NCBI GenBank assembly: GCA_003142795.1
Contig: PLNN01000059.1
Coordinates: 36,535-82,221, forward strand
Direction of reading: 5' to 3'
Length of the DNA stretch: 45,687 nt
Source: Candidatus Omnitrophota bacterium
GTDB taxonomy: Bacteria > Omnitrophota > Gorgyraeia > 2-01-FULL-45-10
The translations under genes were made by a program, and so were the position numbers. Positions within the stretch are counted from its first letter, which is position 1. Every line of letters begins with the position of its first letter. This document shows positions 2,343-22,500 of the stretch, piece after piece. The notes below the pieces were generated by a model. That model saw nothing but the letters and a program-made list of their open reading frames with translations, searched no databases and was not told the DNA's origin.

Positions 2343-2343
2343 A

Positions 2344-5282: not shown

Positions 5283-5285
5283 CGC

Positions 5286-5504
5286 TTATTTTTTCCGTTT
5301 AGAAAACATTTTTTTAAAAAATTCCTTTATATTGTTCCAGAAAAGCTTGATCGCGAACAACCCCCCGAGGAATGTCGCCACGACGAGCTGGATCATGTAA
5401 CTGCCGGCCCCCAAGCCGAGATAGGCGAGCGCCTTGGCCGGAAAGACCAGGCCCAACAGGCAGTAAAGTACAAATATACCGATCGTGAATTTAAGGATCT
5501 TCAT
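5286..5504 (-). CDS. Small membrane protein, variant of the 'AY[LI]DPG[TS]GS..Q' family
   Basis: 72 aa. Signal-like N-terminus ending AKALA, then YLGLGAGSYMIQ, a TM helix and a basic tail. GGAGG-like RBS upstream. Tightly coupled to both neighbours. Confidence 0.7.
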   Translation of the reverse strand: MKILKFTIGIFVLYCLLGLVFPAKALAYLGLGAGSYMIQLVVATFLGGLFAIKLFWNNIKEFFKKMFSKRKK

Positions 5505-6877: not shown

Positions 6878-6902
6878 CTGTTATTCGAAATACTCGCCGG
6901 CC

Positions 6903-8027
6903 TCACGGTTGCGCCGAATCTTTAATGGACGGGGAATCCTGCTTCGACAGGTCTATTATCGTTCTTTCCCTGACAGGGCTCCCGTCCGCTCCGCTCAGGA
7001 TCATTATGACAGGCCTTAGCGGAGAGCCCGGGTGGGCGCTGATGACCCTTGCCGTCTCTTCGGTATCCAGTTTCACGATGCTTCCTATCGGATAAACGGA
7101 CATCTTATTAATAAATATCTTCATCACATCCGCGTCAAAATAATTTTTCATCGGGCCCACTATGGCCCTGACGGCCTTATGAGTATTCACCTCTTCACGG
7201 TACGGCCTTATATGCGTTATCGCCTCGTACGTATCTACAAGCCCTATGATCTTGGCGTAAACGTTTATTTCATCGGCTTTAATGCCGCGCGGATATCCCG
7301 CGCCGTTCATCCTTTCGTGATGCGTGCGTATCGTCTCTTTCACGACATCGTTTACACCTTCGATCCTTTCGGCGATCCGCAGGCTTTTATCGATGTGGGA
7401 ATCGATAACGCTCCGGCCCTCCCTGGTTATCGCGCTCGGACTGCATATAATCTCTTTCAGGCTGTCTAAACCTGTGTCGTAAAATATGCACGCCAATCCA
7501 AGATGGCTCAAGCGCGATTTATTAAATCCCATATTGAGCCCGATAATGGATGACAATAGCAGACAGTTAACTATGTGGTAAGGCAGGTAATATTCTTCTT
7601 TCTTCTTTTCATATACGCTGATCAGGATATTGTCCCCCATGACAAGCTGGTTGAAGACGTCGTCCAAAAGTTCGGAAAGCTTGTGGTTGTAGAGGTTAAT
7701 GTCTTCGCCCATACTTATCTTCCCGAGCATCTCCCTGATCACGGCAACGGCATTATCGTAAAGGTTCTGCGCCTTTTCATGGCTATCCACCCCATGCTGC
7801 CTCACGGCCGAAATAAGCTTCTTGGACGTCAGGGAATGGTCTTCGGCGCTTGGCACTTCTTTCGGGGCCGATGTCAATATCTCTCTGGGAAAACTTAACG
7901 GCTGGCTCGCGGGCTTCTTTTCTCCGCCGCTGTTTTTCAAATCGCCGGCGGAAGATTTTTTTTCCTGCCCCTCCCGCTTATCATTATTTTTTACGGTACC
8001 TCTCAACACATCAAACATTCTCGGCAT
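6903..8027 (-). CDS. HD-GYP domain protein with a degenerate HD motif
   Basis: HHERMNGAGYPRG, IIGLVDTYEAIT and RPYR are present. The HD position reads YD (ACIFYDTG). C-terminal YPIGSIVKL...PLRP extension. Confidence 0.8.
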   Translation of the reverse strand: MPRMFDVLRGTVKNNDKREGQEKKSSAGDLKNSGGEKKPASQPLSFPREILTSAPKEVPSAEDHSLTSKKLISAVRQHGVDSHEKAQNLYDNAVAVIREMLGKISMGEDINLYNHKLSELLDDVFNQLVMGDNILISVYEKKKEEYYLPYHIVNCLLLSSIIGLNMGFNKSRLSHLGLACIFYDTGLDSLKEIICSPSAITREGRSVIDSHIDKSLRIAERIEGVNDVVKETIRTHHERMNGAGYPRGIKADEINVYAKIIGLVDTYEAITHIRPYREEVNTHKAVRAIVGPMKNYFDADVMKIFINKMSVYPIGSIVKLDTEETARVISAHPGSPLRPVIMILSGADGSPVRERTIIDLSKQDSPSIKDSAQP

Positions 8028-8841
8028 AAAATGACCTTTCCATGGATAAATCTGTCGCTACCCTCTCCACCAAGCCTTTGTCTATGATCTTCGCCTCTTG
8101 CCCGAATCCTATAAGGAGGCTCATGTCGCATATATTGTTTATGTTCCTCGGCAGCCCCTTAGAATACTCATAGATCGTCCTGATGGCCTCTTCCGTGAAT
8201 ATCTCCGTCTTCGCTCCGGCTACAGAGAGCCGGTGCCTTATATACTCCGCCGTCTCCGAATTATTGAGGCCGGTCAGGTGGTATTTAACTCCGAGCCTCT
8301 GCTGCAATTGAGGTATCGACCGGATCTTGGGCAGGAGCTCGGGCTGTCCTATCAATATCAGCGTTATGAGGAATTTGTCGTTCAGTTGAAAATTCAGGAA
8401 GAGCCTGATCTCCTCGAACGTCCCTCTCGATTTTATGATCTGCGCTTCGTCTATCAGTATCACCGTCTTCTTCCCTTCGGTGTGATTTTTGTAGATGATG
8501 TCGTGCATTATGTGCAGGAGCTGGGGCTTGGAACCCACGGCGTGTTCGTTCTTCAGCTGATAGATTATCTCCTGGATGAATTCAACCGGCGTAAGCTGGG
8601 GATGCGTTATGAGCGCCGCTTCGTATATCTTATCCTTTATCAATTCATCTATGACGATCCTGCTCAGGGCCGTCTTGCCGGAACCGTATTCTCCGGTAAG
8701 CATCGTCGCGCCTTTCTCTTCTTTTATGGCATAGAGAAGCCGCATCAGCGCCTCTTCGTGCTTCTTCGAATAGTACATGAAGCGCGGGTTGGGAGTGTTC
8801 TCAAAAGGTTTTTCCGCCAAGCCCCAGTATTTTTCGTACAT
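8011..8841 (-). CDS. ExeA/GspA-like AAA ATPase (type found in polysaccharide and PEP-CTERM-associated loci)
   Basis: MYEKYWGLAEKPFENTPNPRF N-terminus, Walker A GEYGSGKT, Walker B ILIDEAQ, LIGQPEL, LQQRL and GLPRNINNICD. Confidence 0.9.
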   Translation of the reverse strand: MYEKYWGLAEKPFENTPNPRFMYYSKKHEEALMRLLYAIKEEKGATMLTGEYGSGKTALSRIVIDELIKDKIYEAALITHPQLTPVEFIQEIIYQLKNEHAVGSKPQLLHIMHDIIYKNHTEGKKTVILIDEAQIIKSRGTFEEIRLFLNFQLNDKFLITLILIGQPELLPKIRSIPQLQQRLGVKYHLTGLNNSETAEYIRHRLSVAGAKTEIFTEEAIRTIYEYSKGLPRNINNICDMSLLIGFGQEAKIIDKGLVERVATDLSMERSFYAENV

Positions 8842-8852
8842 CTTACACCGCC

Positions 8853-10823
8853 CTATCCGGCATTTTTGCCTGAGCCTTTTTCTTTCTCGCCGTAATACCG
8901 CCTGTAGTAATAGTAATACGCGTCGATCCCTACCTCGGGCATAACATTATTTAATATTATCCCTGAGAGCGATCCCGGCTTGACGCTTTCTATCTGTATC
9001 TTGGCGCGGCGCAGGGCAAGCCTTGAAGTGGCCCCGGCTTTATACACCAAAAGGACTCCGTCCACCTTAGGTATCATAATGGACGGCTCGCTCACGGCCA
9101 GGATAGGAGAAGTGTCTATCAGGATCAGGTCGTATCTTTTTCTGAAGTCGTTTAAAAGGGCGTCCATCTTTTCGGAATTAAAAAGATTTATCGGGTTTGG
9201 GAATATACTGCCCGCCGTAAGGATGTTGAGATTGTTCAGCCATGGCCGGTCTATGATCTTATTGCCCTCGGTCGTCCCCAACATGAGGTCTGTCGCCGTC
9301 TTCACAACGGAATCGAAGGTCACCTTGCCTGTCAGGATATCCAAAAGCCCTCCCTCTTTGCTCTTTAAGCCGAACAGCTTATGGATGTTCGCCCTGCGGG
9401 AGTCGCCGTCGATGAGCAGCGTCTTGTAGCCCATCTGCGCCATGATCACCGCGAGATTGGACGTGATAACGCTCTTACCTTCTTCGGGATTGCAGCTCGT
9501 TACCAATATGATCTTATTTTTTATCTTTTCGCCTTTTCCGAACAGCACCTGCAGGTTCACGCTCAAGATCCGGAAGGCCTCTAAAAAGATAGAGCCTCCC
9601 GGCTGATCGAAGGCGGAGACGGACGTTTCGCATACTGATGTCTTTGCCCCATGCCTTCTTTTGAAAGATATCCCGCCCATGATCCATCTCAGCATCTTTT
9701 TCCACAACCCCGGCCTTTCCATATCTTCGCCGGCCGTCTTGCTCGAGCAGTACGGAATGACGCCCACCACGCTGACCTTTATGAAATTTTCTATGTCATC
9801 GACCCTGCCTATTGAAGTATCGATATGCTCCGTCACCAGCGCAACGGTTACGCCGAGGACAGCGCCCAGGATTAGGGCCATCGCGTAGTTTTTCGCTTTG
9901 TTGGGATATGAAGGGTATCTCGGCGGGATGGCGGGATTGACTATCAGGACATTGTCCACTTTTTCCGCTTCTTTTATCTGCGCCTCCGGCAGTTTCTGTT
10001 TCAGGGAAGTGTAGAGGGCCTCGTTCACCGTTATGTCCCTCTTCAGGATGCTGTACTCGAATTCCTCTTTCGACAGGTCGTGCAAAGACCCTTTCAACTC
10101 GCTTATCTCTTCATCCATGCGCACAACTTCCGGATGTTTTTCAGTAAATTTTGTCATCAGGTCCATGCGTTTCTTTTCCAACTCAGAGATCTGGTTCACT
10201 ATGTTCACACCGGACCCAATGACACCTTGCTTTGTAAGTTCGCGCATCCTCGCATCCTGCGCTTTCAGCTTTGCCGAGATCCTCCTAAGCGTCTTCTCTA
10301 TGAAGGCCCGGACATTATGGGCCTGCTGGTTCTTCTGTTCGAGATTGATATTTTTGAATGCATCGGCGATATTGTTGGCCAGGTTTGCCGCCTTCTCGGG
10401 ATCCTGGGAAGAGACCTGCAGCCTGATCATGTTTGTCTTCTCTATCTCCTGCGCCTCGACGCCGGCGCTCATCTCGCTGATGATCCCGTTCTTGACCTTG
10501 TCGGTCATGCCGTCCGTTATCAGTCCCATATTTTTCCCGGCCAGTTCCAGGACAGGCCTCGAGACGATCTGCCTGGTATAGTCCGAGAGATTGGTCGTCG
10601 CGGCTGTCCAGTATTGAGCGCTCGACGGAAAGACCACCTCGGAGGGTATACTCAAAGTGGGGATTATCTTCAGTAGGACCGTGGCGGAATATATGGGCCT
10701 TTGAAAACTTGTATAGACGAATATGCTTATAAAAACGGTAAAGAAAGAGATTATCACCGACAGCCTTCGCTTCAGGAAGATATTCCAATAATCTCTTAAA
10801 TTCAGTTCGTAGAGTTGAGCCAT
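8853..10823 (-). CDS. wzc: Wzc-like polysaccharide co-polymerase / BY tyrosine autokinase
   Basis: Wzz-type N-terminus (ELNLRDYW, PIYSAT), coiled-coil, second TM helix, Walker A SCNPEEGKS, A' LLIDGDSRR, Walker B LIDTSP and C-terminal tyrosine cluster AYYYYYRRYY. TTG start. Confidence 0.9.
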   Translation of the reverse strand: MAQLYELNLRDYWNIFLKRRLSVIISFFTVFISIFVYTSFQRPIYSATVLLKIIPTLSIPSEVVFPSSAQYWTAATTNLSDYTRQIVSRPVLELAGKNMGLITDGMTDKVKNGIISEMSAGVEAQEIEKTNMIRLQVSSQDPEKAANLANNIADAFKNINLEQKNQQAHNVRAFIEKTLRRISAKLKAQDARMRELTKQGVIGSGVNIVNQISELEKKRMDLMTKFTEKHPEVVRMDEEISELKGSLHDLSKEEFEYSILKRDITVNEALYTSLKQKLPEAQIKEAEKVDNVLIVNPAIPPRYPSYPNKAKNYAMALILGAVLGVTVALVTEHIDTSIGRVDDIENFIKVSVVGVIPYCSSKTAGEDMERPGLWKKMLRWIMGGISFKRRHGAKTSVCETSVSAFDQPGGSIFLEAFRILSVNLQVLFGKGEKIKNKIILVTSCNPEEGKSVITSNLAVIMAQMGYKTLLIDGDSRRANIHKLFGLKSKEGGLLDILTGKVTFDSVVKTATDLMLGTTEGNKIIDRPWLNNLNILTAGSIFPNPINLFNSEKMDALLNDFRKRYDLILIDTSPILAVSEPSIMIPKVDGVLLVYKAGATSRLALRRAKIQIESVKPGSLSGIILNNVMPEVGIDAYYYYYRRYYGEKEKGSGKNAG

Positions 10824-10838
10824 TATTCCCTTCTGCGC

Positions 10839-11645
10839 TTAGTTACTCGGGACATCTTTTACCGGCCTGTGTATAAACCATGCTCTGGCTTCTTTTGCTA
10901 CGGAGGAGAAGTTCGTGCCCGCGGTAAATATGGTCGTGGCGGTATTCAGGACCGGCTGTATTTCGTTCAGGAATTTGTTAAAGTCGGCGATAGTCGACCT
11001 GGGCACATATACCACATCATTCGGCTTAAGAATAATATCGGAGCTTGAAGTGCCTTTCCTTATGGCGGTAAGCATATCTACCCTTCGGACCTTCGGATGC
11101 TCGGTAAGATTGTCGCTTATGACCATGATGCTTTCCCTGCGGCCGTCCGGCGTAAAATCGCCGGCCATGGCCACCGCCTCAAGAAGATTTATAGTTCCCT
11201 TAAAGGTATAGATGCCCGGATAGCTGACCTGCCCTAAAACAAGTATCTTATTGCCTACCGATTCCTTGACGGAAACTGTAACCTGCGGCAGCCTGACGTA
11301 CTCGGACAGTTTCTCCGTGATCATCTGCTGGAGCTGGTCGATGGTCATGCCGGCCGCTTTTATCGTGCCAACCAAAGGATATGACAATTTGCCATCCGGC
11401 CTTACAAGAACGTCACGGGTAAGATCCGTGTTCTGCCATACGTAAATTTCGAGCAGGTCGCCGGCGGCTATGTAATATTCCGCGACAGCCTCACCCATCG
11501 AGCTCGTATTTGTAGGGATTGTGCCGTAGGAAGTGCTTCGAAGTCTTATGAATTCCTTTGCCTGGGGAAATGCCGGCTGGCCGGCAATACAAATTATCGC
11601 GATGAATATAAAAAATACCCTATTTTTCAGCGCACTCTTTAACAT
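10839..11645 (-). CDS. wza: Wza-like polysaccharide export protein (Poly_export + SLBB)
   Basis: YYIAAGDLLEIYVW, VRPDGKLSYPLVG, VLGQVSYPG and LKPNDVVYVP; N-terminal signal sequence. Confidence 0.88.
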   Translation of the reverse strand: MLKSALKNRVFFIFIAIICIAGQPAFPQAKEFIRLRSTSYGTIPTNTSSMGEAVAEYYIAAGDLLEIYVWQNTDLTRDVLVRPDGKLSYPLVGTIKAAGMTIDQLQQMITEKLSEYVRLPQVTVSVKESVGNKILVLGQVSYPGIYTFKGTINLLEAVAMAGDFTPDGRRESIMVISDNLTEHPKVRRVDMLTAIRKGTSSSDIILKPNDVVYVPRSTIADFNKFLNEIQPVLNTATTIFTAGTNFSSVAKEARAWFIHRPVKDVPSN

Positions 11646-11710: not shown

Positions 11711-12874
11711 TCATATATTAAGCATACTTGTCAAATAACGCACGGCTCCGCTGCAAAGCCTTTCCAGATAGCCTCTCTTTCCCATGATCTCCCTGGGCGG
11801 CCAGCACACCCTTTTAAAAACATTTACATGGTCTTTGAAAGATCCCGCCTCCGATATTTCAAATAATATGTAGCTCAGGAAGCTGTCGAGAAGCCTCCTC
11901 CTGAACCTGCTTCTCAGCATGACCCTTTTATTTGCAAAGGTCGTTATGAAAATACGTTTCGGCAGGGAAAGGCGCAATTTGCCCAATATATCTTTGGGAA
12001 AGTTCACATCGAAAATTGAGTCGGTAACTTTAAGCGCGGCGTAAAGCGAACCACGGAGCCGCCACTTGACGGCCTTTTCGGCTAATGCGTCCCAATCGAT
12101 ATCGTTTCCATATTTATCTATCAGGCGGTCTATATCACAGAGATATTTAAGTTTTCGGAAAGAGTCGCTGTTCACCAGATGCGCTGAAAGATAGAGTAAA
12201 AGTTCCTCGGGTTTAAGGTCGTAGAAAGAGACCCCTTCCCACTTCGTCTCTTCCGCGCCCTCCCAAAGCCCCTCTATTCTTTCCGTCGAGCGGACCATCA
12301 TCGTGATATCCCAGTGCAGTTCGATCATCCTTGCCCTGGGCTTATGGAAGGTGTGGCACCATTCGTATGAACTGATCTCGTCGGCCGGTGCGCGGGCATA
12401 ACCCAGTTCTTTTAGCGCCGCGCCTGCGCGGTCTTTATCTTTTTCGCGAACCAGGAGGTCCACATCTACGCTACGGTCCCGGCTTGCTATATCCCCGTAA
12501 AGCCTGTGGGCGAGCGTGATCCCTTTTAGCGGTATCACGGCTATATCGAGCGCGGAAAAATGTTCCAGGACCCTGACCAGTTCATCTTTGTAATATTCAT
12601 TGACCGCGGAACTCGCGGCGTGGGAGACCCGTAAAGACTGAAGCGATCTTTCACCGATTTTGTCTACGGGAACGTAAAACCGAAGAGCGCGGTATACGAG
12701 CGAAGATACTCCTCTTTCGCGCGCCGTCCTTGCGATAGTCTCGAGATCGGCGCCTTCTTTTATGAGGCCGAGGAGCGCCTCTTCATGCGTGGCAGCGTCC
12801 TTTTTTAAGGAGGCGGCGAGGAGCCTTTCCGTGCGTTTATCCAATACCGTTGATCTGGCCCGCGAATAATTCAT
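11711..12874 (-). CDS. Nucleotidyltransferase family protein (NTP_transf_5-like, RiPP/lasso-cluster-associated type)
   Basis: PLKGITLAHRLYGDIASRDRSVDVDLLV (LKG...DxD), IELHW and LKYLCDI motifs. Confidence 0.85.
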   Translation of the reverse strand: MNYSRARSTVLDKRTERLLAASLKKDAATHEEALLGLIKEGADLETIARTARERGVSSLVYRALRFYVPVDKIGERSLQSLRVSHAASSAVNEYYKDELVRVLEHFSALDIAVIPLKGITLAHRLYGDIASRDRSVDVDLLVREKDKDRAGAALKELGYARAPADEISSYEWCHTFHKPRARMIELHWDITMMVRSTERIEGLWEGAEETKWEGVSFYDLKPEELLLYLSAHLVNSDSFRKLKYLCDIDRLIDKYGNDIDWDALAEKAVKWRLRGSLYAALKVTDSIFDVNFPKDILGKLRLSLPKRIFITTFANKRVMLRSRFRRRLLDSFLSYILFEISEAGSFKDHVNVFKRVCWPPREIMGKRGYLERLCSGAVRYLTSMLNI

Positions 12875-14585
12875 TGTATTTTATATCGCTCTCGGCGAAT
12901 GCCTTTGCTGTGCCTGCATCCATCTTGGACGGACTTTTAAGGAAATAGACCGTATCCATCTTCCTGGCGGAAGAGAGCCTGTGAGAGATCATGACAAGTG
13001 TCGACCCGGGATAGGCGCCTATTATGTTATCGACTATTCTTTCCTCTAATCCTGAATCGAGCGACGAGCAGGCCTCGTCCATTATCAGTATCTTCGGCTT
13101 CTTCGCGAGCGCGGCGGCGATCGCCATCCTCTGCCGTTGGCCCTGCGAGATCACCGACACCATGTCTTCCAGTATGGTGTTATACCCGTCGGGAAGGCCC
13201 TCGATGAAAGAATCGATCTCGGCCAATCGCGCCGCGCGCCGGACTTCGGAAGCGTCTATCGAGCGCCCGCCCCATGCCATGGCCTGGGCGATGCTGCCGC
13301 TCCATAGGGACGGTGCCTGAGGGACGAGCCCCGTCTGGCTGTAGATCGATTTCAACGACATCTCTCTCACGTCGCAGCCGTCCAGAAATATTCCGCCGCT
13401 ATTTACATCATACAGCCTCAAGATCAGGTTCGCTATCGTAGTCTTGCCACTCCCGGACGCGCCTACGAGCGCCGCTTTCGATCCGGGCATTACGGTAAAA
13501 TTGATCCTGTCGAGGACGAGATCATTGCCTCCTCTGTACCCGAAAGAGACGTTTTTAAAATTTATTCCTGGGCGCGAGAATTTTACATAGGGCGCGCCGG
13601 ATCTTTCTTTTACATATACCGGCGCATCCAAAACCTCCGCCATGCGCTCCAATGATAAACGGTTCAGGACGATCCGCTCGAAGACCGTCACAAGCGCCGT
13701 ATAGGCTGCCGTGCCCTGGGACATGTAGGCCAAGATAGCGCCGAGAGAGCCGAGAGTCATCTGCCCTTTTATGACCAGTAAGGTTCCGACGAGGCCTACC
13801 GTTCCGAAAAATAGTTTTCCGGATATTTCTGACAGCGCGTCCGAAATAGAATCGAGTTTCGTGGTCGCGGCTTCCGAACGTATCGAATCGAAAAATATAT
13901 GGAAATATTTCCGCACGACGGCGGCCATGGTGCCGGAGGCCTTTATAACGTAAATTTGCGAAAAGATCTGGGTCAGAGCCCTGGACATATCCCAACCCTT
14001 CTTATAAAACGCCCTGGCTAATGCCTCCTGTCGTCTGGCGAAAAATCGCGCCTGGGCTATGACTATAACTTGATAGCACAGTATAAGGATCAATATCTTG
14101 ACATTTATGAACGCAATGATGAGCGTGATGAGTATCAACCGGAGGACTGCTTTGATAAGCTCGGGGGCTGTCGAGGCTATAACGCCGGAACAGACGGTGA
14201 TATCCGCATTCAGCCGCGAGGCATACCCGCCGATAGACTTGTCGCGAAACGATTCGAGCGAAAGTTTTTGTGTCTTCCTGAATACGCTCCTCGCGAGATC
14301 GACCTTTATCTTTCGCGTCGTGGAATTTTTAAGGACCGAGGCCCCCCTGTCAGAAACCTGCCGTAAGAGATAAATTACGCCGCCTATCAGCGTGTATATG
14401 AAAAATGATCTCATATCCCTGCCAAGGATGCCGTTATCGAGGATCAATTTCCCTATATACGGCCCGAAGAGAGAAAATATTATGGAAACGACGCCGCATA
14501 ACAGCAGCGCCGAGCCGGCCTTCCAGTAGCGGATGAGGTAAGAGTTAAACCTTAAAAAAATTTTTATCTTATCGACGCGCGGCAC
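12837..14585 (-). CDS. ABC exporter (TMD + NBD), no C39 peptidase domain
   Basis: About six TM helices, Walker A GASGSGKT, signature ISQGQRQR, Walker B ILIMDEA, H-loop SHRLS. Confidence 0.92.
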   Translation of the reverse strand: MPRVDKIKIFLRFNSYLIRYWKAGSALLLCGVVSIIFSLFGPYIGKLILDNGILGRDMRSFFIYTLIGGVIYLLRQVSDRGASVLKNSTTRKIKVDLARSVFRKTQKLSLESFRDKSIGGYASRLNADITVCSGVIASTAPELIKAVLRLILITLIIAFINVKILILILCYQVIVIAQARFFARRQEALARAFYKKGWDMSRALTQIFSQIYVIKASGTMAAVVRKYFHIFFDSIRSEAATTKLDSISDALSEISGKLFFGTVGLVGTLLVIKGQMTLGSLGAILAYMSQGTAAYTALVTVFERIVLNRLSLERMAEVLDAPVYVKERSGAPYVKFSRPGINFKNVSFGYRGGNDLVLDRINFTVMPGSKAALVGASGSGKTTIANLILRLYDVNSGGIFLDGCDVREMSLKSIYSQTGLVPQAPSLWSGSIAQAMAWGGRSIDASEVRRAARLAEIDSFIEGLPDGYNTILEDMVSVISQGQRQRMAIAAALAKKPKILIMDEACSSLDSGLEERIVDNIIGAYPGSTLVMISHRLSSARKMDTVYFLKSPSKMDAGTAKAFAESDIKYNELFAGQINGIG

Positions 14586-15102
14586 TTATCTTCTCCTCCA
14601 ACCCGGGCCAGAAGCTTCTTTCCTTAACGAATTCCATTTCATACGCCGGGATATTTTTTACAAGATCGCAGGCCGTGGAAAATATTTTCTTAAGAGGCTC
14701 GTCCCCCGTGGCCGCGAGAAAGTGGATGTGGTTCGACAAAATATTAGCCAGGGCTTTTTCAGGCGGTAGATATCTGAACGAGACGCGGTTAGATTTTTTG
14801 ATGAAAAATATCGCGGCGGCCTTTCCTTTCAGGCCGCGCTTCAATTTTATAAAAGGCTGCTGTCTCCACGGGGTTTGAAAAGCGTAATAATGCCTGCCGC
14901 ATTTTCTTATCGCGATGATATCGTCGCCTAAAACCGTGTATTTTCTGGAAAGGGCCGCTATCGTGGATTTGCCGGCGCCGGATACGCCCAAAAAAAGGAA
15001 CGTCTTTCCGCCTTTAACGACGGCTGAGGCGTGCAGCAGCATTCCGTTGTTCAGCGCCAGCATCTGGGAGTATAGATATGAGGCGAGCCTGCTATTACGC
15101 AC
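14569..15102 (-). CDS. HPr-kinase-related P-loop kinase (ScmC-like), short form
   Basis: LLHASAV, Walker A GVSGAGKST, LGDD and TPW motifs. The GTG start overlaps the 3' end of the precursor gene. Confidence 0.8.
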   Translation of the reverse strand: MRNSRLASYLYSQMLALNNGMLLHASAVVKGGKTFLFLGVSGAGKSTIAALSRKYTVLGDDIIAIRKCGRHYYAFQTPWRQQPFIKLKRGLKGKAAAIFFIKKSNRVSFRYLPPEKALANILSNHIHFLAATGDEPLKKIFSTACDLVKNIPAYEMEFVKERSFWPGLEEKISAARR

Positions 15103-15460
15103 CGCCGCCCGAGCCGCTTGAGCATTTTGAAGCGCTGGAGCCGCTTCCGCACATAGGACCTAATGGGGTTGAGCCCCTGGTGCAATCGCCGGGAAAACTA
15201 GAGCCAATGTCGCAGTTTATAACGGCGTCTGTGCCGTTCAGGCAGCTTTCGAGAGCGGTAGTGCCGTTATTGCAATTCAGGGTCTGAGGTTGATTGCCTT
15301 GCTGACATTTTGCCGGACCGCCCTGCGGCTCGGTGCCGTTGGAGCAGGCAGAGCCGATATCGCCGGAGCTGCAGCCCGTTGCGCCCATCGGCGTAAAACC
15401 GGGCTTTCCCGATTCAGGATCGGTTACAAGAGGAGGGACATATTTCTTCTTCATACTCAT
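15095..15460 (-). CDS. Putative RiPP precursor: lasso-type leader plus nine CxxG repeats
   Basis: 121 aa. Leader KKKYVPPLV (YxxP-type RRE-binding motif). Core CSSG, CSNG, CQQG, CNNG, CLNG, CDIG, CTRG, CGSG, CSSG. AGAAGGT RBS upstream. Adjacent to RRE and rSAM genes. Confidence 0.82.
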   Translation of the reverse strand: MSMKKKYVPPLVTDPESGKPGFTPMGATGCSSGDIGSACSNGTEPQGGPAKCQQGNQPQTLNCNNGTTALESCLNGTDAVINCDIGSSFPGDCTRGSTPLGPMCGSGSSASKCSSGSGGGA

Positions 15461-15496
15461 ATATTTTACCTTCTAAATCGGTTATTGTCAATCCCT

Positions 15497-16831
15497 CTAA
15501 CGGGAGATATTTTTCTTTTTCCAGCAGTATATGTCGCGATTTTTTATTCCACCGGGATTATAATAGGGGTAACAGCGATGGCCCAAAAAACACAGATACT
15601 GATAGACGCACCCTTTACATTCCGGTATTTCGTCCAGGTCCACTTCCATCGGTTTGCGGAAAGAATTCATCGTTTCCGAATTTTGCCATATATCGGCCAG
15701 GCTCTTCTCTTTCAGATTCCCGCACTTCACGTCCCACATTATTTCACAGGGCGTGACCCACCCGTCCGGCCGCACTGCGCATTTCGAGCCCGCGGCCCCG
15801 CAAGGCCCGACGATTATCTTGTCATTGGAAGGTTTGTGGTCCTTGACCTTATCGAGTTTTTTCTTCTGGCAGAGATACGAGCTGTCCGGATATATGAAAC
15901 CCTCAAATTCTTGGCTGGCCTGCCAGACCGCCTCTATCGCCTCTCTTTCTTCATCGGGCGACAGGTAAAGCTCTTCTACAAAACACGCGGCGTTCCCCCC
16001 AAAAAATACGTGGTTGAATCGTATGGCGGCTGCGTCCAGTTTTTTCCCGGCGACCACCATATCCCGGACATCTTTATAGTTGAGCTTGGTAAGCGTAACC
16101 GAAAGAAGGACGGATAACCCCTCGTTTCTTAGCGCGCGGATGCCTTTTATGCATCTCTCGAATGTCCCGGCGCCCCGCATCCGCTCCATGATCTCCGGCG
16201 TCGAACCGTCAAAACTCACTACGGTGCTCGTGATCTTGTGGGCCTTGAGCCACCGCGCCATTTCGACATCTATAAGAGTGCCGTTCGTATTGAGAGAGAT
16301 GCTGATCGGATATTTATTTATCCGCTCTATTATGCGCCTGAAGTCCGGATGGCATAGCGGCTCGCCCCCAAAAATATTTATAGCCTTTGTCCCGCCTTCG
16401 CCCATCGCGTCTATAACGTCCACGATCTTCTCGTACGTCATGACGGGCTCCGGCCGGGACTGGGAAGAGCCCGAGGCGCGGTTTATGCAATGCCTGCAGT
16501 TCAGATTACATTTTGATGTAATGCCGAGGCATACGGAGAGAGGAAGATCAGTAATAGAGGAATAATTTTCCAGGAAACCCATCTTCCCCAGCGAGTCCAC
16601 AAATGTGTCATAATCTTTCCGGGCCGTTTTTTCGTCCACGATCTCGAAATCTCGCGACATCTCTTCGATTATCCCGCGCGCCATATTTTTTCCGTCCAGG
16701 CGGGACCAGATGAATTTCCCGGTTTCATTAAGGATGTTGATCTTCCCCGTGTCGGGATCGAAAAGAAGGCCTATCTCTTCTTCTTCCCTGAAGACTATAT
16801 CCGGCTTGCGTTTGTAGTTGATGATTTTCAT
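15497..16831 (-). CDS. scmE: PqqD/RRE-fused radical SAM/SPASM enzyme (ScmD+ScmE-like)
   Basis: N-terminal RRE (LLFDPDTGKINILNETGKFIWSRLDG). CNLNCRHC, GGEP and NTNG. SPASM CGAAGSKCAVRPDGWVTPC...CKGCVYQYLCFLGHRC...C. The symbol is by resemblance to the SynChlorMet cassette. Confidence 0.8.
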   Translation of the reverse strand: MKIINYKRKPDIVFREEEEIGLLFDPDTGKINILNETGKFIWSRLDGKNMARGIIEEMSRDFEIVDEKTARKDYDTFVDSLGKMGFLENYSSITDLPLSVCLGITSKCNLNCRHCINRASGSSQSRPEPVMTYEKIVDVIDAMGEGGTKAINIFGGEPLCHPDFRRIIERINKYPISISLNTNGTLIDVEMARWLKAHKITSTVVSFDGSTPEIMERMRGAGTFERCIKGIRALRNEGLSVLLSVTLTKLNYKDVRDMVVAGKKLDAAAIRFNHVFFGGNAACFVEELYLSPDEEREAIEAVWQASQEFEGFIYPDSSYLCQKKKLDKVKDHKPSNDKIIVGPCGAAGSKCAVRPDGWVTPCEIMWDVKCGNLKEKSLADIWQNSETMNSFRKPMEVDLDEIPECKGCVYQYLCFLGHRCYPYYNPGGIKNRDIYCWKKKNISR

Positions 16832-17097
16832 ATACTCCGAACTTTTATAAGTTTTCTTTTTTCAAGGTCTTTCACGAATCTGGCCGCGTCGTTCTTCGCA
16901 ACCGGCATTCCTATGCCGTACTCCCTCACCAGATGCCGTATTATATCATCTATGCTCTTCCGGCCCTTGCAAAAATCCCAGACCGCGGAAGCGGTATCGT
17001 TCAATACATATGATTTATGGGTGGTCGTATTAAATACTACTTTATTGGGCGGGAAATCCGCCGTCAGCACATCTTTTGATCGCTCTATTTTACGCAT
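16828..17097 (-). CDS. Stand-alone PqqD family RiPP recognition element
   Basis: 89 aa, VFNTTTHKSYVLNDTASAVWDFCKG...DAARFVKDLEKRKLI, the classic PqqD pattern. Confidence 0.88.
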   Translation of the reverse strand: MRKIERSKDVLTADFPPNKVVFNTTTHKSYVLNDTASAVWDFCKGRKSIDDIIRHLVREYGIGMPVAKNDAARFVKDLEKRKLIKVRSI

Positions 17098-17113
17098 ATA
17101 AGTTTAGCCCCCT

Positions 17114-17140
17114 GAAAAATAGGGACACATCCCATTTTTC
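17114..17140. repeat. REP-like palindrome, copy 1
   Basis: GAAAAATAGGGACACATCCCATTTTTC, a hairpin overlapping the stop codon of the 17139..18203 gene. Confidence 0.85.
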
Positions 17141-18203
17141 ATATAATTCTCGATCCCGGGAAGAGGCCTTCCTCATACGCGGCCTGACAGAACGAGAGCG
17201 GCGCCGACACAGAGCCTTTCGAGTAATACGCCTCCGCCCTGCACTTACCCAGGCAATAATATCTCAACATACAGCGGCCGCATATCCCGGACATCCTGGC
17301 CGGAATATTTTCCCTGATCTCTCGCAAAACGGGATGATCGCTCCAGATGTCCTTTATCCTGTCCTTACCTATCCTGCCCAGGACCAGCCTGTCGACATTC
17401 GATCCTATGCCGCATATGGAGATCGCGCCGTCGCCCAAAATGCCCAATATGTTGAATATACTGCAAGTGCTGATGCTCTCTATGCGCATATTCTTAACCT
17501 GTTTAAAAGCAGGAGGTATATCGAATATCACCCTTATCGGGGACAGGACATTCATCTCTTCATTAAGCTCGTTATAAAAATCTATCGTCTCTTTAACAGT
17601 CAATGTCTCTTGCCGTTCCTGCATGAGATCGGCGCGGCACATGCCCTGAATCAGATTTATTTTAACAGAGGAAGCGCCGAGAGACCGCGATAACTTTATT
17701 GTAGATTTTATATTATCTTTATTCCCTCTCCAAAGAGACGTTATTACCTGTATGCTGAGGCCTTCTTTTTTTAGCGCGGCGATCCCCTTGAGGGCGTCGT
17801 CAAAAGAACCTTTTACGCCCCTCAAGGCTTCGTGAATTCCGGCGTTCGGCCCATCCAGAGATACTGCGATAAGCGTTGCTTGCGCCTGCCTTAAGGCCTT
17901 CGCCTCTTTCTCTCTTATGAAGACGGCGTTCGTTTCCATACTGAGCCTTATCGATTTTTCGCGGACGTATTCCAGGAGGCCGAATATGTCATTCCTTGTG
18001 AACGGCTCGCCGCCCGTCAGCTTGACCGATCTCATTCCGAGCTCGCGACACTCTTCAAGGCAGGAGATTATATCATCGAGCGGCGCCTCATCTTCTCTTA
18101 AGCCCCGACTATCCGCGTAAGGAGGGTTTATCCAGCAGTGCCTGCACTTCAGGTTGCAGTATTTAAAATATAGATATACGGTGCGAAGAGCGAATTTGTC
18201 CAT
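17139..18203 (-). CDS. scmF: Radical SAM/SPASM enzyme (ScmF-like)
   Basis: CNLKCRHCWINP, VKLTGGEP and METN. SPASM CSIFNILGILGDGAISICGIG...CGRCMLRYYCLGKCRA...C. The symbol is by resemblance. Confidence 0.8.
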   Translation of the reverse strand: MDKFALRTVYLYFKYCNLKCRHCWINPPYADSRGLREDEAPLDDIISCLEECRELGMRSVKLTGGEPFTRNDIFGLLEYVREKSIRLSMETNAVFIREKEAKALRQAQATLIAVSLDGPNAGIHEALRGVKGSFDDALKGIAALKKEGLSIQVITSLWRGNKDNIKSTIKLSRSLGASSVKINLIQGMCRADLMQERQETLTVKETIDFYNELNEEMNVLSPIRVIFDIPPAFKQVKNMRIESISTCSIFNILGILGDGAISICGIGSNVDRLVLGRIGKDRIKDIWSDHPVLREIRENIPARMSGICGRCMLRYYCLGKCRAEAYYSKGSVSAPLSFCQAAYEEGLFPGSRII

Positions 18204-18216
18204 AATTATATCGGGT

Positions 18217-18690
18217 CTATCTTGGTATTATACGCGTTACCGCTTTTAAAATAAAGAAAAACGAGCAGACAAGCGGTTTTAACGGCGCTCGAACGAAGGA
18301 CGGCATCTCTTTGGCCGAACGCCGCATCGCGATAACGGCGTTGGCGAGCCTAACGTAGAATAGCGCGGCAAACCGGCTCTCTTTCAGGACAACCCGGCCA
18401 ATGACATCTGACTGGGCGATGCGGTCCGCGTCGATGTAAAATTGATTATCGCCTTTGGTGAGAAAAATCCTCTCCTGTTTCGGGCCCTCTATCCCGATTA
18501 CGCGGTGGGTCACGGCCCTCTTAGGAAAAATAGGGACACATCCTATTTTCCATATTTTTTGATATATGATTATGTCACCGGCATGGATCGCATCGGGCGA
18601 AACTTCTTCTACAAGAAGCCGCGCGCCGACACGAATGGTCGGCAGCATGCTCTTGCCCTCGAATGGCATAGTGGTAAAATAGGGACGCAT
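18217..18690 (-). CDS. S26 (Sec11/SipW-type Ser-His) signal-peptidase-like protein; candidate leader peptidase
   Basis: GKSMLP, GDIII, THRV and TKGDN motifs. The annotated ATG lies within a REP copy, so the real start may be the ATG at 18669. Confidence 0.8.
   Translation of the reverse strand: MRPYFTTMPFEGKSMLPTIRVGARLLVEEVSPDAIHAGDIIIYQKIWKIGCVPIFPKRAVTHRVIGIEGPKQERIFLTKGDNQFYIDADRIAQSDVIGRVVLKESRFAALFYVRLANAVIAMRRSAKEMPSFVRAPLKPLVCSFFFILKAVTRIIPR
18524..18551. repeat. REP-like palindrome, copy 2 (intragenic, in frame)
   Basis: GGAAAAATAGGGACACATCCTATTTTCC, which encodes WKIGCVPIFP in the peptidase. Confidence 0.85.
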
Positions 18691-18698
18691 CCTATTTT
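18676..18698. repeat. REP-like palindrome, copy 3
   Basis: AAAATAGGGACGCATCCTATTTT, containing the transposase TAG and the peptidase ATG. Confidence 0.8.
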
Positions 18699-19357
18699 TT
18701 CGGTCTTCCTTTTGGACGCAATGAAAACTCTATCCCGAGTTCCTCCGCTATTTGCCGAATGAATTTTTCGGTTCCTGTCGGTCTTCCCGTATAGAGCGCG
18801 CTTCTTATGCGCCTTTTCTCCTCGTCCGCCTCCGGCAGATTCAGAAACGCAATATAATTTTTTCTTTCTTTTTCATTATACCATATAGGCGTTATTAAAG
18901 GACTTTTTCCTGTGCCGGCGATATGCGTTCTCGCACTTGACCATTCATAACATTCCGGACTGTCGGCGATTTCTGCCCGAACGGGATTTCTTTCTATATA
19001 TTTGCAAACCGTCCAAAGGTGCGAGTCTCTTTCTATCACAGACGCGTAAAATCTGGACTCCCAAAGCCTGCCGGTCCGGTCGTATTTCTTGTTTATATGC
19101 TGCGTGTATGTCAGGCTTAATTTTTGCATCATCTTCGACAAGGCAGTTGCGATTAACGGCGTTAGCAACAAGTGCGCATGGTTATTCATAAGGCAATAGC
19201 TGCTTACGCGACAATCGCATTCAGTGGAATATTTTTTCAACAGATCTAAATATATCCGCCTATCCGAGCCATCAAAATATATGGGCTGTCTGTTATTCCC
19301 TCTCTGGACTACATGATGCGGGTAGTCTACGGCTATGATTCTGGCTATCCGTGGCAT
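18692..19357 (-). mobile_element. REP-associated tyrosine transposase (RAYT, Y1_Tnp/HUH family)
   Basis: MPRIAR, HHVVQRGNNRQ, HUH motif CLMNNHAHLL, GRLWESRF, catalytic Tyr in KYIERNPVRA, YEWSS and KGRPKK tail. Flanked by palindromic repeats. Confidence 0.9.
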
Positions 19358-19489: not shown

Positions 19490-19559
19490 TAAAAAAATAG
19501 GGACACATCCTATTTTTTTATCAGTCTCTTCGGTAAAAAAATGGGATGTGTCCCTATTT
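19490..19559. repeat. Inverted REP doublet (REPIN-like), copies 4-5
   Basis: TAAAAAAATAGGGACACATCCTATTTTTTTA (19490-19520) and inverted AAAAAAATGGGATGTGTCCCTATTT (19535-19559). Confidence 0.85.
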
Positions 19560-19561
19560 AA

Positions 19562-22500
19562 TTAATTCGTCAGGATGCCGCGGCGGACGCTGGACGATCC
19601 CCACGTGGGAGTTCCGCTACCGACTGTGCCGTTCATCCCGTAGATGGAACTTGAGGTATCCCAGAACGCGTACAGCGTGTTGCCAGCGTTATTGATCGAA
19701 AGCGTCGGGTTGCCGGTCACTATGCCCGCGTAAAGGGTTACTGCAGAGCTCCAAGAGGAGAGCGCGGCGTTGAATTGTCTGTACATCAGCTGATTACTCG
19801 TGTTGGTGTAGATAAGATTGACATTGTGATTAGAATCCATGACGGCTGAGATGGGGACATTGGATCCAACATCAACCGCTCCGGTCGGAATGTACTTCGC
19901 TATATAGCCTGACGATATTCCTTTTACGTCGATGAAGTTTCCGCCAGCGTAAATGTCATTGCCGTTGACCAGCAGAGTATAAACGCCGCCGCTCGAGAAG
20001 CCAACGTCGTTGCCGGCATTTAATGCGTAGAACGTGCTGTTGGAGGGATCATATTTAGCGGCGCGATTGACCGTAACGCCGTTGGCGGTCGTGAAATCTC
20101 CGCCTACATAGATTATTGAATTAAGTATCACCAGGGTGCGGACTGAATTATTCATTCCTGTGCCAAGCGCGCTCCAGCTGGAACCGTTCCACTTGGCTAT
20201 ATAATTTGGATTGGTAACGCCGCCGGCCAGGGTAAAGAACCCGCCGACGTAGACGTGTGTTGCATCCACAACCGCTATGGCATTAACGACGCTATTCACT
20301 CCCGTATTACCATTATACGTAAGCGCATTCCAAGAGCCATTGTATTTCGCAATATAGTTAAGGGTCGTAACGTTGTCGCCGGTCTTGGTAAAACCGCCTC
20401 CCACATAGACATCAGAGCCGGAAAGGACGATCGTGTTTACATAATTATTCAATCCGTTGCCAAGCGCGCTCCAGGTTGAAGTCGAAACGGTCCATTTCGC
20501 TATGCGGTCCGCGGCCGCAATGCCTCCGGCATCGGTAAAATAACCGCCGACATAGAGGTCGGTGCCGTCTGTCGCCATCGTATTTACGTAACTGTTGACC
20601 CCTGTGTTACCGCTATAGACAAACGCATGCCACGAGCCGTCCCACATAGCAAAGCGGTTCAATGTTATCGCGTTATCGGACGTCGCACTGAAGCCGCCGC
20701 CTATATAAAGCTTGCCGTCGATCACGACCAATGCCTTGACGAGACTATTAAGACCGTTATGCCCGTTATCGATGAGGGCCGCCCACGTGCCTGTAGAAGG
20801 CGTGTATTTGGCGATGCGGTTCACCGTAAGGCCGCCTGCCGTTGTAAAGTTGCCGCCTACGTAGATATCTGTGCCCAATACCGCCATTGCGTATACAAGA
20901 CCGTTCGTGCCGATCGCGCCGGAAGCCGGCGTTATCGGGCTCCATGTGATACCGCCGCTGTATATGGACAGGTAACTCGTATTGACGCCGGATGACTGTG
21001 TAAAATCTCCTCCGGCACAGACGTAGTTATTGACATCACGTGCGATAGCTCTGACTGAAGCATTCATACCCGTATCAAGCGCAGACCATGTGTCGTTATG
21101 CCGCAGGGCAATATGGTTGGCAGAATTATTGTCCGCAGTGGTGAAGTCTCCTCCGACGAAGAGGTAGTCGCTGCCGGAATCATAAAGGATGGCTCTGACC
21201 GCACCATTCATTCCTAACCCAAGCGCTGACCAGGAGTTGCCATCCCACTTTGCAATGTAGTTGACAGAGCTGCTGCCCGCATTGGTAAAATCTCCTCCGG
21301 CGTAGACATTGCTGGTGTCCGTGCCATCGATCGCATAGACAGTTCCGTTAAAGCCGTCGCCAACAGGGTCCCAGTAGTTGCTACCACTACCTGCATTATC
21401 TGATACAGCTATTCTATTTGCGGCAATCTGCTCACCATGATAGCCGTAAGCTATCGTAAAATCACCGCCTGCAAAAAGAGCTTCTTGGCCATAGGAGCTT
21501 CCTGCTGTTACTTTCAAAGCGCGCACGGTTCCATTTACGCTGCCATAAGCCCCAGTTGCAGACCAACCACCTCCGTCGTAATTGTAGGTGGCTACATAGT
21601 TAAAATTATTACCGCCGGCAGTAGTGAATGCGCCGCCGACATAGATATCATAATAAGTGATGCTCGTCGCCAATGCATACACAGGGCCGTTTGTGCCCTC
21701 ATTTCCGGCGCCGCCTAATGCGTACCAGCTCGTGCCATTCCACATCGCGATGTAATTAACGTCGGTCTGGCCGCTTCCAGCCGTGGTGAAGAGACCTCCC
21801 ACAAAAAGGTAGTTACCTCCATAGGCGCTGCTTGTCGTCAGAGCTCTAACCGAACCGTTAACGCCGCCGGCAAGATCAACCCAGGCGGAACCATTCCATT
21901 CAGCAATATGATTGATGGCGCTGCCGCCGGCCGTTGTAAAATCTCCGCCGACATATAGGTTCCCGTTCCATATGATCATCGCGTATACCGCTCCATTCAG
22001 ATCGACGTACGGGAACGCGAACCAGGCATAGTCTCCGCCGTCATTCGGCTCGGTCCAGTTAGTGCCGTTATAATAATAATGGGTAATGTTATTAGATATC
22101 CCGGAAGCTAAGATATTCATCGTCCCGGAAGCGCCCGGCAGGAGCACTATGTCGCTCAAAGTCTGAGAGCTCTCTCCCACCTTCACGGCAGTTGTCGGCC
22201 AGGCGGAGATATCGCCGCTCACTACGTTAGTCGATTTCTTTACGTTTACCTGATAATAAGTTCCCTGCACATAGTGGCTGGCGGCCGCCCATACATAATT
22301 ATCCGTGCCTATAGCCAATGTGGGCTTTGAGTAATAGTCGCCGTCCGACGTGCCGCTGAATACTGTCACTTCGCTGCCGAATCCGATACTGGTCGCACTG
22401 ACTGCCCCTTTATTTAACACTATATTGTAACCGTTCACGGTCGCCACGACCGCGTATCCTGCGCCATAAGCTACCGTGAATGTTGGCGTGGTGAAGGAAC

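Follow-up and report, generated by a model that had tools for sequence, protein, structure and literature searches.

A probable radical SAM-modified precursor peptide with nine CxxG units in a SynChlorMet-like gene cassette of Candidatus Omnitrophota

Introduction

Gene cassettes of the SynChlorMet (SCM) type are covered by five NCBIfam models, ScmA (TIGR04252), ScmC (TIGR04249), ScmD (TIGR04248), ScmE (TIGR04250) and ScmF (TIGR04251), which date from about 2012 and are over a decade old. Here we analyse a relative of this cassette on a stretch of 45,687 nucleotides from a Candidatus Omnitrophota bacterium (GenBank assembly GCA_003142795.1, contig PLNN01000059.1, positions 36,535 to 82,221), which is called the window throughout. 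The gene in question is located on the minus strand at 15095..15460 and encodes a small peptide with nine CxxG motifs. The gene family is already catalogued, and the window together with its relatives represents a chemically uncharacterised variant of it. Literature searches on SynChlorMet, ScmF, TIGR04248-04252 and CxxG precursors, with supplements outside their scope, found no published chemistry. For ribosomally synthesised peptides with post-translational modifications (RiPPs) of Omnitrophota that depend on radical S-adenosylmethionine (rSAM) enzymes, the literature found consists of general surveys of biosynthetic gene clusters, with nothing specific in the part of PMC9902471 that was covered.

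Two other RiPP systems are described in the literature and are used for comparison below. Streptosactin contains the unnested sactionines Cys31-Gly34 and Cys25-Ser28, which are formed by an rSAM/SPASM enzyme (PMC8172795); for the first streptosactin bridge, the same source has Cys15-Ser28 in one place and Cys25-Ser28 in another. In lasso peptide clusters, a homologue of HPr kinase phosphorylates the linear precursor, and the phosphate then receives hexoses from a nucleotidyltransferase, which in some cases forms a fusion with the B2 protease (PMC8498205). The RiPP recognition element (RRE) B1 stimulates the kinase, and the leader motif of the lasso precursors is YxxPxL (PMC10368454).

Results

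A gene for a peptide with nine CxxG units

Our overall explanation, which we consider probable, is that the open reading frame (ORF) at 15095..15460 encodes an ScmA-like precursor of an rSAM-modified ribosomal peptide and is part of an SCM-type cassette. That it is a genuine rSAM-modified precursor, whatever the chemistry, is in our view very likely. The ORF starts with ATG and comprises 121 codons plus a stop codon; its translation begins with MSMKKKYVPPLV and ends with SGSGGGA. The nine Cys are located at residues 30, 39, 52, 63, 73, 83, 93, 104 and 113 and follow each other at distances of 9, 13, 11, 10, 10, 10, 11 and 9 residues, with a Gly at +3 in nine of nine cases, and the translation thereby bears out an earlier note, made from the letters of this DNA alone, which had reported nine Cys, all in CxxG and 9-13 residues apart. 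With the split between leader and core placed at G29|C30, the leader takes up approximately residues 1-29 (15374-15460, minus strand) and the core residues 30-121 (15098-15373, minus strand), the nine units being about 10 residues long each. A core cut at this position has 92 amino acids, among them 18 Gly, 15 Ser, 9 Cys, 7 Asn and 7 Thr, and nine CxxG were reached in none of 100,000 shuffles of it (shuffle mean 1.72). The gene is present as a single copy in the genome (1.94 Mb in 70 contigs, 92% complete), and no Pfam family matches the precursor or 15 of its relatives.

The precursor is predicted to have no fold of its own. AlphaFold2, run with an alignment of 120 rows, gave a mean predicted local distance difference test score (pLDDT) of 52, with most of the core below 50, and the Atlas model of the precursor has a pLDDT of 0.40. 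The maximal hydropathy over nine residues of the leader is 0.26; judged by its sequence, the leader is not a signal peptide.

The CxxG-repeat family

A word-indexed homologue search with the precursor returned only the precursor itself and one relative; an exhaustive profile search found more. One metagenomic protein (P0002) is 60% identical to the precursor and keeps all nine CxxG. In 18 precursors that are linked to a cassette, 129 of the 130 Cys are part of a CxxG, a share (99%) far above the 60% of the CxxG filter by which 16 of the 18 had been pre-selected (described below). The next Cys follows most often at +10, position +6 from Cys is Ala in 54%, Pro in 20% and Val in 10% of cases, and position +4 is T, S, N or G, with no side-chain acceptor kept there. 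Across the family alignments, no core position other than Cys and Gly(+3) is invariant.

Searching 1.84 billion cluster representatives with the precursor profile yielded 677 matches at E ≤ 0.001 and 37 at E ≤ 1e-10. The best 150 of the 677 comprise 130 proteins of at most 200 amino acids and 20 long ones, which were set aside as repeat-composition matches; the six long matches that were scanned carry eukaryote-type domains (QSOX, GH20, AKAP7, BTB) and Cys-rich repeats and are without the leader. A leader of the form [KR]x0-2[YWF]xxP in combination with at least three Cys is found in 118 of the 130 short matches, and 889 of their 932 Cys are in CxxG, a share that is partly due to construction since the profile itself encodes CxxG. 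Across the family, a peptide has between 3 and 14 CxxG units. The view of the earlier note that the core is modified iteratively is supported in so far as long repeat cores are typical substrates of such modification.

The leader motif KxxYxxPx[ILV] is a feature of the family as a whole. With 120 sequences aligned on the Tyr, Y is found in 113 and P(+3) in all 120, accompanied by K(-3) in 93, I, L or V(+5) in 90, L(+8) in 81 and D(+7) in 60, in agreement with the earlier reading of the ORF as a RiPP-type precursor with an RRE-style YxxP leader. The lasso-style junction A-T-G|C with Thr at -2, claimed at the same time, is limited to the close relatives of the window: Thr is located at -2 from the first Cys in only 17 of the 120 sequences. 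Residue -1 is most commonly N (22), A (13), D (10) or P (9), small residues are common at -3 and -2, and in many members the cut may thus lie a residue or more upstream of the first Cys. An AxA rule directly before the first Cys was considered as a family-wide statement and rejected, since residue -1 is often N, D or P. At the junction in the window, G-A-T-G|C, positions -3 and -1 are occupied by small residues.

The cassette around the precursor gene

All sizeable ORFs around the precursor are located on the minus strand, and according to Pfam and NCBIfam the transcription order is Y1 transposase, S26 peptidase, ScmF-like, PqqD, RRE-ScmE-like, precursor, HprK-like kinase, ATP-binding cassette (ABC) exporter and NTP_transf_5. 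The ORF is thus flanked by two rSAM/SPASM maturases, two RREs, the S26 peptidase, the kinase, the exporter and NTP_transf_5. The earlier note had named PqqD and rSAM genes only as targets of a motif search, without listing the adjacent maturases, and had missed the link to SCM; what stood of its interpretation is the RiPP precursor with an RRE leader and an iteratively modified repeat core, and the absence of a lasso system.

Two rSAM/SPASM proteins are encoded. The first, at 17139..18203 (354 amino acids), has no RRE and contains two Cys motifs, CX3CX2C (residue 16) and CX2CX5CX3C (residue 308). It is ScmF-like: TIGR04251 matches over its full model length (337.5 bits, cut-off 400) and is the best match of this protein by a wide margin. 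The second, ScmE-like protein (444 amino acids, 15497..16831) carries an N-terminal PqqD-like RRE (PqqD at 23-86, Radical_SAM at 104-259, SPASM at 344-408), CX3CX2C at residue 108 and a Cys-rich C-terminus, and it matches TIGR04250 with 165.9 bits (cut-off 400). A discrete PqqD-family RRE of 89 amino acids is encoded at 16828..17097 (Pfam PqqD, 59.8 bits); its best NCBIfam match is lasso_PqqD_Bac, a lasso B1 model, with 45 bits (cut-off 80), and it reaches 28 bits with ScmD (cut-off 100). The ScmC-like, HprK-related P-loop kinase (177 amino acids, 14569..15102) has the Walker A motif GVSGAGKS and matches TIGR04249 with 34.1 bits (cut-off 125) over model positions 123-290 of 292. For these four enzyme and chaperone genes, the matching SCM model is the best or near-best NCBIfam match.

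The remaining cassette genes have no SCM-named models that we could find. The S26 protein (157 amino acids, 18217..18690) resembles signal peptidase I of the archaeal/ER type (TIGR02228, 63.6 bits, cut-off 51.85) and has no N-terminal hydrophobic anchor. The exporter (582 amino acids, 12837..14585) is a fusion of permease and ATPase (ABC_membrane and ABC_tran) which aligns with NHLM_micro_ABC1 only from model position 151 and has no peptidase domain. An 'uncharacterised nucleotidyltransferase' of the NTP_transf_5 family (387 amino acids, 11711..12874; PF14907, 168.2 bits), which we propose to be a tailoring enzyme, is the last gene; it closes the cassette in 10 of the 17 loci searched.

Recurrence in related genomes

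Scanning one genome per species with an alignment of ScmF-like proteins gave 35 loci, 16 of them with a protein that is 37-77% identical to that of the window and 19 with distant rSAM proteins (24-31%). The closest loci are located in metagenome-assembled genomes (MAGs) of Candidatus Omnitrophota, and the recurring loci mostly belong to Omnitrophota. Precursors were identified with a filter for ORFs of at most 250 amino acids with at least four Cys and three CxxG and with at least 60% of the Cys in CxxG. Of the 16 close loci, 11 have such a small CxxG-repeat ORF next to their rSAM gene; among the 19 distant loci it was found in one, where the ORF looks unrelated. The locus with the closest ScmF-like gene (L015, 3534-5284, 77% identity) keeps the S26 gene upstream; phmmer found no further cassette gene there and the filter no CxxG ORF, and this locus is either a remnant or a different arrangement.

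Comparison of the gene order by phmmer, using the proteins of the window and of genome G395, revealed two types. Type I, which is found in the window and in L016, L018, L019 and L020, has the order S26, ScmF, PqqD, RRE-ScmE, precursor, HprK, ABC, NTP_transf_5. Type II, with the order ScmE, ScmF, HprK, ABC, PqqD, precursor(s), S26, NTP_transf_5, is found in L017 (the locus of G395), L021, L023, L026, L027, L028 and L013 (the locus of G351). The rSAM pair is kept beside the peptide in every complete locus. In a Desulfuromonadaceae MAG (L022, 9698-10537) the S26 peptidase is fused to PqqD, and in an Omnitrophota MAG (L023, 3943-5820) it is fused to NTP_transf_5; both fusions tie the S26 domain functionally to the cassette.

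Co-occurrence was determined in a single sample of the phylum, comprising 401 genomes, with a profile of the 18 precursors (E ≤ 1e-5) and TIGR04251 (E ≤ 1e-60). The peptide profile matched in 11 genomes and the ScmF model in 15, and all 11 are among the 15; none of the 386 ScmF-negative genomes has a peptide match, related genomes in this sample not being independent. This strict co-occurrence bears on the alternative that the ORF encodes a small Cys-rich protein which stays unmodified, namely a repeat (solenoid) that binds metal or is stapled by disulfides, and that its linkage to rSAM genes is incidental. The regular 10-residue periodicity of Cys and Gly does resemble repeat proteins, and the profile also finds the long Cys-rich repeat proteins that make up 20 of its best 150 matches. 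Set against this are the co-occurrence, the lack of a confident fold, the conserved RRE-type leader that is not a signal peptide, and the eukaryote-type domains and missing leader of the long matches scanned. We consider an unmodified protein highly unlikely, and the metal-binding solenoid suggested in the earlier note found no support in the structure prediction.

The SCM models themselves connect the relatives of the window to the SCM cassette. TIGR04252 (ScmA) weakly matches (E ≤ 1) 8 of the 18 precursors, and one of the profile matches (P0037) passes the ScmA cut-off with 36.5 bits (cut-off 35). The ScmE protein of L022 exceeds its cut-off with 409.9 bits (cut-off 400) and is encoded beside a CxxG peptide of five units. 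In the sample of the phylum, ScmF is above its cut-off in three genomes, two of which (G184 and G187) also have peptide matches. From these matches and the shared gene content, the system of the window is seen to be a divergent, repeat-expanded relative of the SCM cassette.

Some of the related genomes show peculiarities. In-frame TAA codons are found in the precursor matches of G184 and in the ScmF gene of G187, which was read with two such codons. Elsewhere in G187, a CxxG-repeat ORF (L005, contig C25, 1399-1692) with the deviating leader …LSWTKPGL… is located between tryptophan-synthesis genes and away from rSAM genes. An Endomicrobiales MAG (L029, 6005-7397 and 8214-14389) encodes CxxG precursors in a tandem of four, the leader of which (KWIKPEKI) is different, together with two PqqD proteins, ScmE-like and ScmF-like proteins, a long S26 protein, a third rSAM gene and a peptide-arginase-like gene (NF052474, 161.7 bits, cut-off 350).

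Comparison with a lasso precursor

The leader and several of the genes are also what would be expected of a lasso peptide, with the cyclase and the B2 protease encoded elsewhere in the genome. The leader fits YxxPx[ILV], and the precursor of the window has the Thr at -2 (motif in PMC10368454); kinase, nucleotidyltransferase and ABC exporter are gene types associated with lasso clusters (PMC8498205). In addition, the best NCBIfam match of the discrete PqqD protein is the lasso B1 model. As the earlier note had observed, and Pfam and NCBIfam searches confirm, the window contains neither a lasso cyclase nor B2; the 92%-complete genome has no PF13471 (B2) match either, and its only strong match to the Asn-synthase family (PF00733) is on another contig (C54). 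The lasso macrolactam requires an Asp or Glu at core position 7-9. The core of the window begins with CSSGDIGSAC, in which the sole acidic residue is at position 5, so that no Asp or Glu is located at positions 7-9. Moreover, a core of 92 amino acids with nine Cys is unlike any lasso core, Thr(-2) is rare in the family as described above, and an rSAM pair accompanies the peptide in every complete locus. The lasso reading was rejected on account of the missing PF13471 match and the off-contig position of the Asn-synthase match, and we regard it as extremely improbable.

State of the copy in the window

The kinase of the window comprises only the P-loop half and lacks the N-terminal domain of about 100 residues which is present in its relatives in L016, L019 and L020; the longest ORFs of the relatives are 274-338 amino acids long. 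Its frame is closed upstream by a stop codon inside the 3´ end of the precursor gene. The S26 protein is shorter than its homologues with a different N-terminus and contains a 10-residue in-frame insertion (18526-18555) that is present in none of 13 homologues. This insertion is a copy of an element resembling repetitive extragenic palindromic (REP) sequences, a 31-nucleotide palindrome (repeat family D1) with the core AAATAGGGACACATCC[C/T]ATTTT, which occurs five times (17114-17144, 18525-18555, 18674-18704, 19492-19522 and 19534-19564). The copies surround the gene of an IS200-type Y1 transposase on the minus strand (18692-19357), a REP-associated tyrosine transposase (RAYT; NF047646, 67.9 bits). 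The S26 motifs GxSMxP, HRV and KGDN are kept in the 14 aligned homologues, including the copy of the window. Although the catalytic motifs of S26 survive, this genome may be in the course of losing the cassette by erosion.

A promoter-like site, TTGACA-17 nt-TAAAAT, is located at 15463..15491 on the minus strand and ends 2 nucleotides before the precursor ATG; a Shine-Dalgarno-like stretch, AGAAGG, lies inside it. With 11 of 12 hexamer matches it is joint best of the region, where 11 such sites were found compared with a shuffle mean of 10.6, so there is no excess and the site is weak evidence for a promoter. Transcription from this site would begin at the first ATG or shortly behind it, in which case translation from the second ATG (Met3) would be leaderless. 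Two metatranscriptome runs from the same study as the best DNA dataset contain nothing on 14569-18690 and are uninformative on expression either way. A second DNA run, with short and shallow contigs, covers part of the stretch and shows no differences at 15305-15635.

Neighbouring genes

Downstream of the cassette, the window contains genes for polysaccharide export and PEP-CTERM-associated genes. Polysaccharide genes are recurring neighbours (window 1-11645; L018 18861-19646; L012 193-5069; L021 809-6205; L027 13-7913), with a Wza-like exporter directly after NTP_transf_5 in the window and in L018, and with glycosyltransferases, WbqC, a PIG-L deacetylase and a DegT aminotransferase upstream of the cassette in type II loci. 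This adjacency may go back to synteny that related genomes share, or there may be a functional link, for instance glycosylation or a product at the surface. On the other side, a giant ORF on the minus strand (19562-32305, 4,247 amino acids) with matches to DUF2341, laminin-G-like and Rax2-type beta-propeller domains is located between a block of housekeeping genes, thrS-infC-rplT-pheST, and the RAYT gene with the cassette.

Discussion

From the gene and its conservation, the motifs, the cassette and its recurrence, all of which are observed, we infer an order of steps, the chemistry of each step and a cleavage site. The unstructured peptide of 121 amino acids would be bound via KxxYxxPx[ILV] by a PqqD-type RRE, either the discrete protein of 89 amino acids or the domain fused to ScmE. 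The two rSAM/SPASM enzymes would work iteratively over the nine 10-residue units and most likely install one intramolecular thioether per CxxG. In the preferred version, the sulfur of Cys would be joined to the alpha-carbon of the invariant Gly(+3), resulting in nine sequential unnested four-residue rings as in streptosactin; the other rSAM enzyme would take part in this reaction or introduce a further modification. The HprK-like kinase and NTP_transf_5 would add phosphate, and perhaps sugar, to Ser or Thr, as their homologues in lasso clusters do. The S26 peptidase would take the place of the lasso B2 protease and cut off the leader near G29|C30, and the ABC protein would export the product.

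Leader recognition was addressed with predicted complexes, as the earlier note had suggested. The complex of the discrete PqqD protein with precursor residues 1-40 scored 0.49 compared with 0.14 for the best control; at least 96% of the contacts agree between runs, and the pLDDT of the partner is at least 53. Among solved complexes, 116 of 157 attain the mark for this score, as do 2 of 215 mismatched pairs, and scores of 0.60 or lower are found in only 18 of the 157 solved complexes and in both mismatches that pass. The prediction weakly supports binding by PqqD; the score may only reflect the likeness to solved RRE-leader complexes. For leader removal, we propose the S26 protein as candidate peptidase, since its motifs are kept, it has no membrane-anchor-like N-terminus, it is fused to cassette proteins in two genomes, and the ABC protein is without a peptidase domain.

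Regarding the core chemistry, we lean slightly towards a thioether of some kind at Cys; the more specific proposal of a sactionine from Cys to Gly(+3) is tentative. One ring per unit between Cys-S and the alpha-carbon of Gly is favoured among the thioethers because Cys and Gly(+3) are invariant, the peptide has no predicted fold, the solved chains nearest to the ScmE-like protein are SkfB (52.5 bits) and CteB (39.7 bits), which both form thioethers, and streptosactin provides a precedent. The precursor might also be modified by the rSAM enzymes with a different chemistry at CxxG, for instance Cys oxidation (formylglycine-like, by a SPASM enzyme of the anSME type), a thio-oxazole-type conversion, C-C cross-links or epimerisation elsewhere in the repeat, and Gly(+3) would then be only a turn or recognition residue. 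The ScmE-like and ScmF-like proteins score as well or better against SPASM enzymes that do not form thioethers, namely AhbD (125 and 151 bits) and WgkB (128 and 126 bits), and one against MftC (119.5 bits); the solved chains nearest to the ScmF-like protein include BlsE and PqqE, and the constant pairing of two different rSAM enzymes suggests two chemistries. The anSME motif is C/S-x-P/A-x-R and is not found in the repeats. Furthermore, the two sole invariants, Cys and Gly(+3), fit a donor-acceptor pair, for which Cys31-Gly34 is the precedent (PMC8172795). On balance we think a non-thioether chemistry rather unlikely.

Several observations weigh against the explanation that we prefer, a thioether-forming SCM-type cassette. 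BlsE and PqqE are not thioether synthases, and the ScmE-like protein has low similarity to the thioether synthases StsB (88.9 bits, cut-off 625) and PapB (78.7 bits, cut-off 340). The ScmF-like protein scores 74.5 bits against AlbA (cut-off 850), and both maturases miss the cut-offs of the characterised sacti- and ranthisynthase families tested, which are represented by hidden Markov models (HMMs). The window is below all five SCM cut-offs, with the four scores given above, and its precursor has no match to TIGR04252 (cut-off 35) even at E ≤ 1; as all five curated cut-offs are missed, we do not file the window as a strict SCM member. The filter found no precursor in 5 of the 16 close loci: three of these end at or near the rSAM gene, and in the two others, L015 and L036, there is space for a precursor. 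Likewise, 4 of the 15 ScmF-positive genomes have no peptide match. Both the pre-selection of the profile sequences by CxxG and the CxxG encoded in the census profile raise the observed CxxG shares. An AxA-type cut right before Cys fails, by the aligned sequences, across the family. Finally, the cassette of the window shows wear, since the kinase is without its N-terminal domain and S26 has the REP insertion and a shorter N-terminus.

A much wider proposal would be that the CxxG-repeat peptides, ScmA and its expanded relatives with 3-14 units, are a large RiPP class of anaerobes, poly-sactionines in the manner of a string of beads in which each unit forms a four-residue ring from Cys-S to Gly-C(alpha), with phosphorylation and glycosylation by a kinase and nucleotidyltransferase derived from lasso clusters and an RRE-guided release by S26. 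We regard this as unlikely in its entirety; in such a class, the S26 homologue would represent a novel kind of leader peptidase for RiPPs. On this view the product may belong to the cell surface or matrix rather than be an antibiotic, because the cassette is repeatedly located beside genes for polysaccharide synthesis and export.

The window and its relatives provide an explicit substrate logic, with invariant Cys and Gly(+3), a 10-residue unit and 3-14 repeats, as well as the complete set of parts, among them a candidate leader peptidase of the S26 type, which is fused to an RRE in one genome and to a nucleotidyltransferase in another. Several hundred sequence clusters are available as candidates for expression. 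If the thioether prediction is true, the product would be more highly cross-linked than any other known sactipeptide-like scaffold, and a module of lasso-style leader, RRE, kinase and nucleotidyltransferase would be able to couple to rSAM core chemistry. If it is false, the rSAM pair probably carries out a new type of reaction on Cys or Gly.

Compared with known systems, the window shares with the SCM cassette a small Cys-rich precursor, two paired rSAM/SPASM enzymes, PqqD and an HprK-related protein in one operon-like block. It differs in the precursor, which has 121 amino acids and nine repeats whereas the ScmA model has 49 positions, in the extra RRE fused to ScmE, and in the addition of S26, the ABC exporter and NTP_transf_5. 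The gene content of sactipeptide and ranthipeptide systems, a Cys-rich precursor together with an RRE-associated rSAM enzyme with SPASM, is present in the window. Ranthipeptides/SCIFF (CteB, PapB) and sactipeptides (SkfB, AlbA) resemble it in their Cys-rich precursors, RRE-bearing rSAM/SPASM enzymes and repeated short Cys motifs, such as the CxxxD units of freyrasin. In contrast to these systems, the HMM scores of the window are far below the cut-offs, and the repeats carry no side-chain acceptor at a fixed offset from Cys.

Clusters of phosphorylated or phosphoglycosylated lasso peptides, such as paeninodin, pseudomycoidin and Bsf, resemble the window in their leader of the YxxPxL type and in encoding a discrete PqqD/B1 RRE, a homologue of HPr kinase, a nucleotidyltransferase and an ABC exporter (PMC8498205, PMC10368454), and the fusion of S26 and NTP_transf_5 in L023 mirrors the fusions of lasso B2 and nucleotidyltransferase (PMC8498205). 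Unlike these clusters, the window has no cyclase and no B2; its core enzymes are of the rSAM/SPASM type and its protease is of the S26 type. In streptosactin, a type II sactipeptide encoded with GggA/GggB, rings extend from Cys(i) to C(alpha)(i+3), and Cys31-Gly34 is itself a CxxG unit (PMC8172795). The repeats of the window carry exactly the two invariant positions that this chemistry needs. This likeness is meant as a mechanistic analogy. Streptosactin, a 14-mer from streptococci, has two rings, whereas the peptide of the window could carry up to nine.

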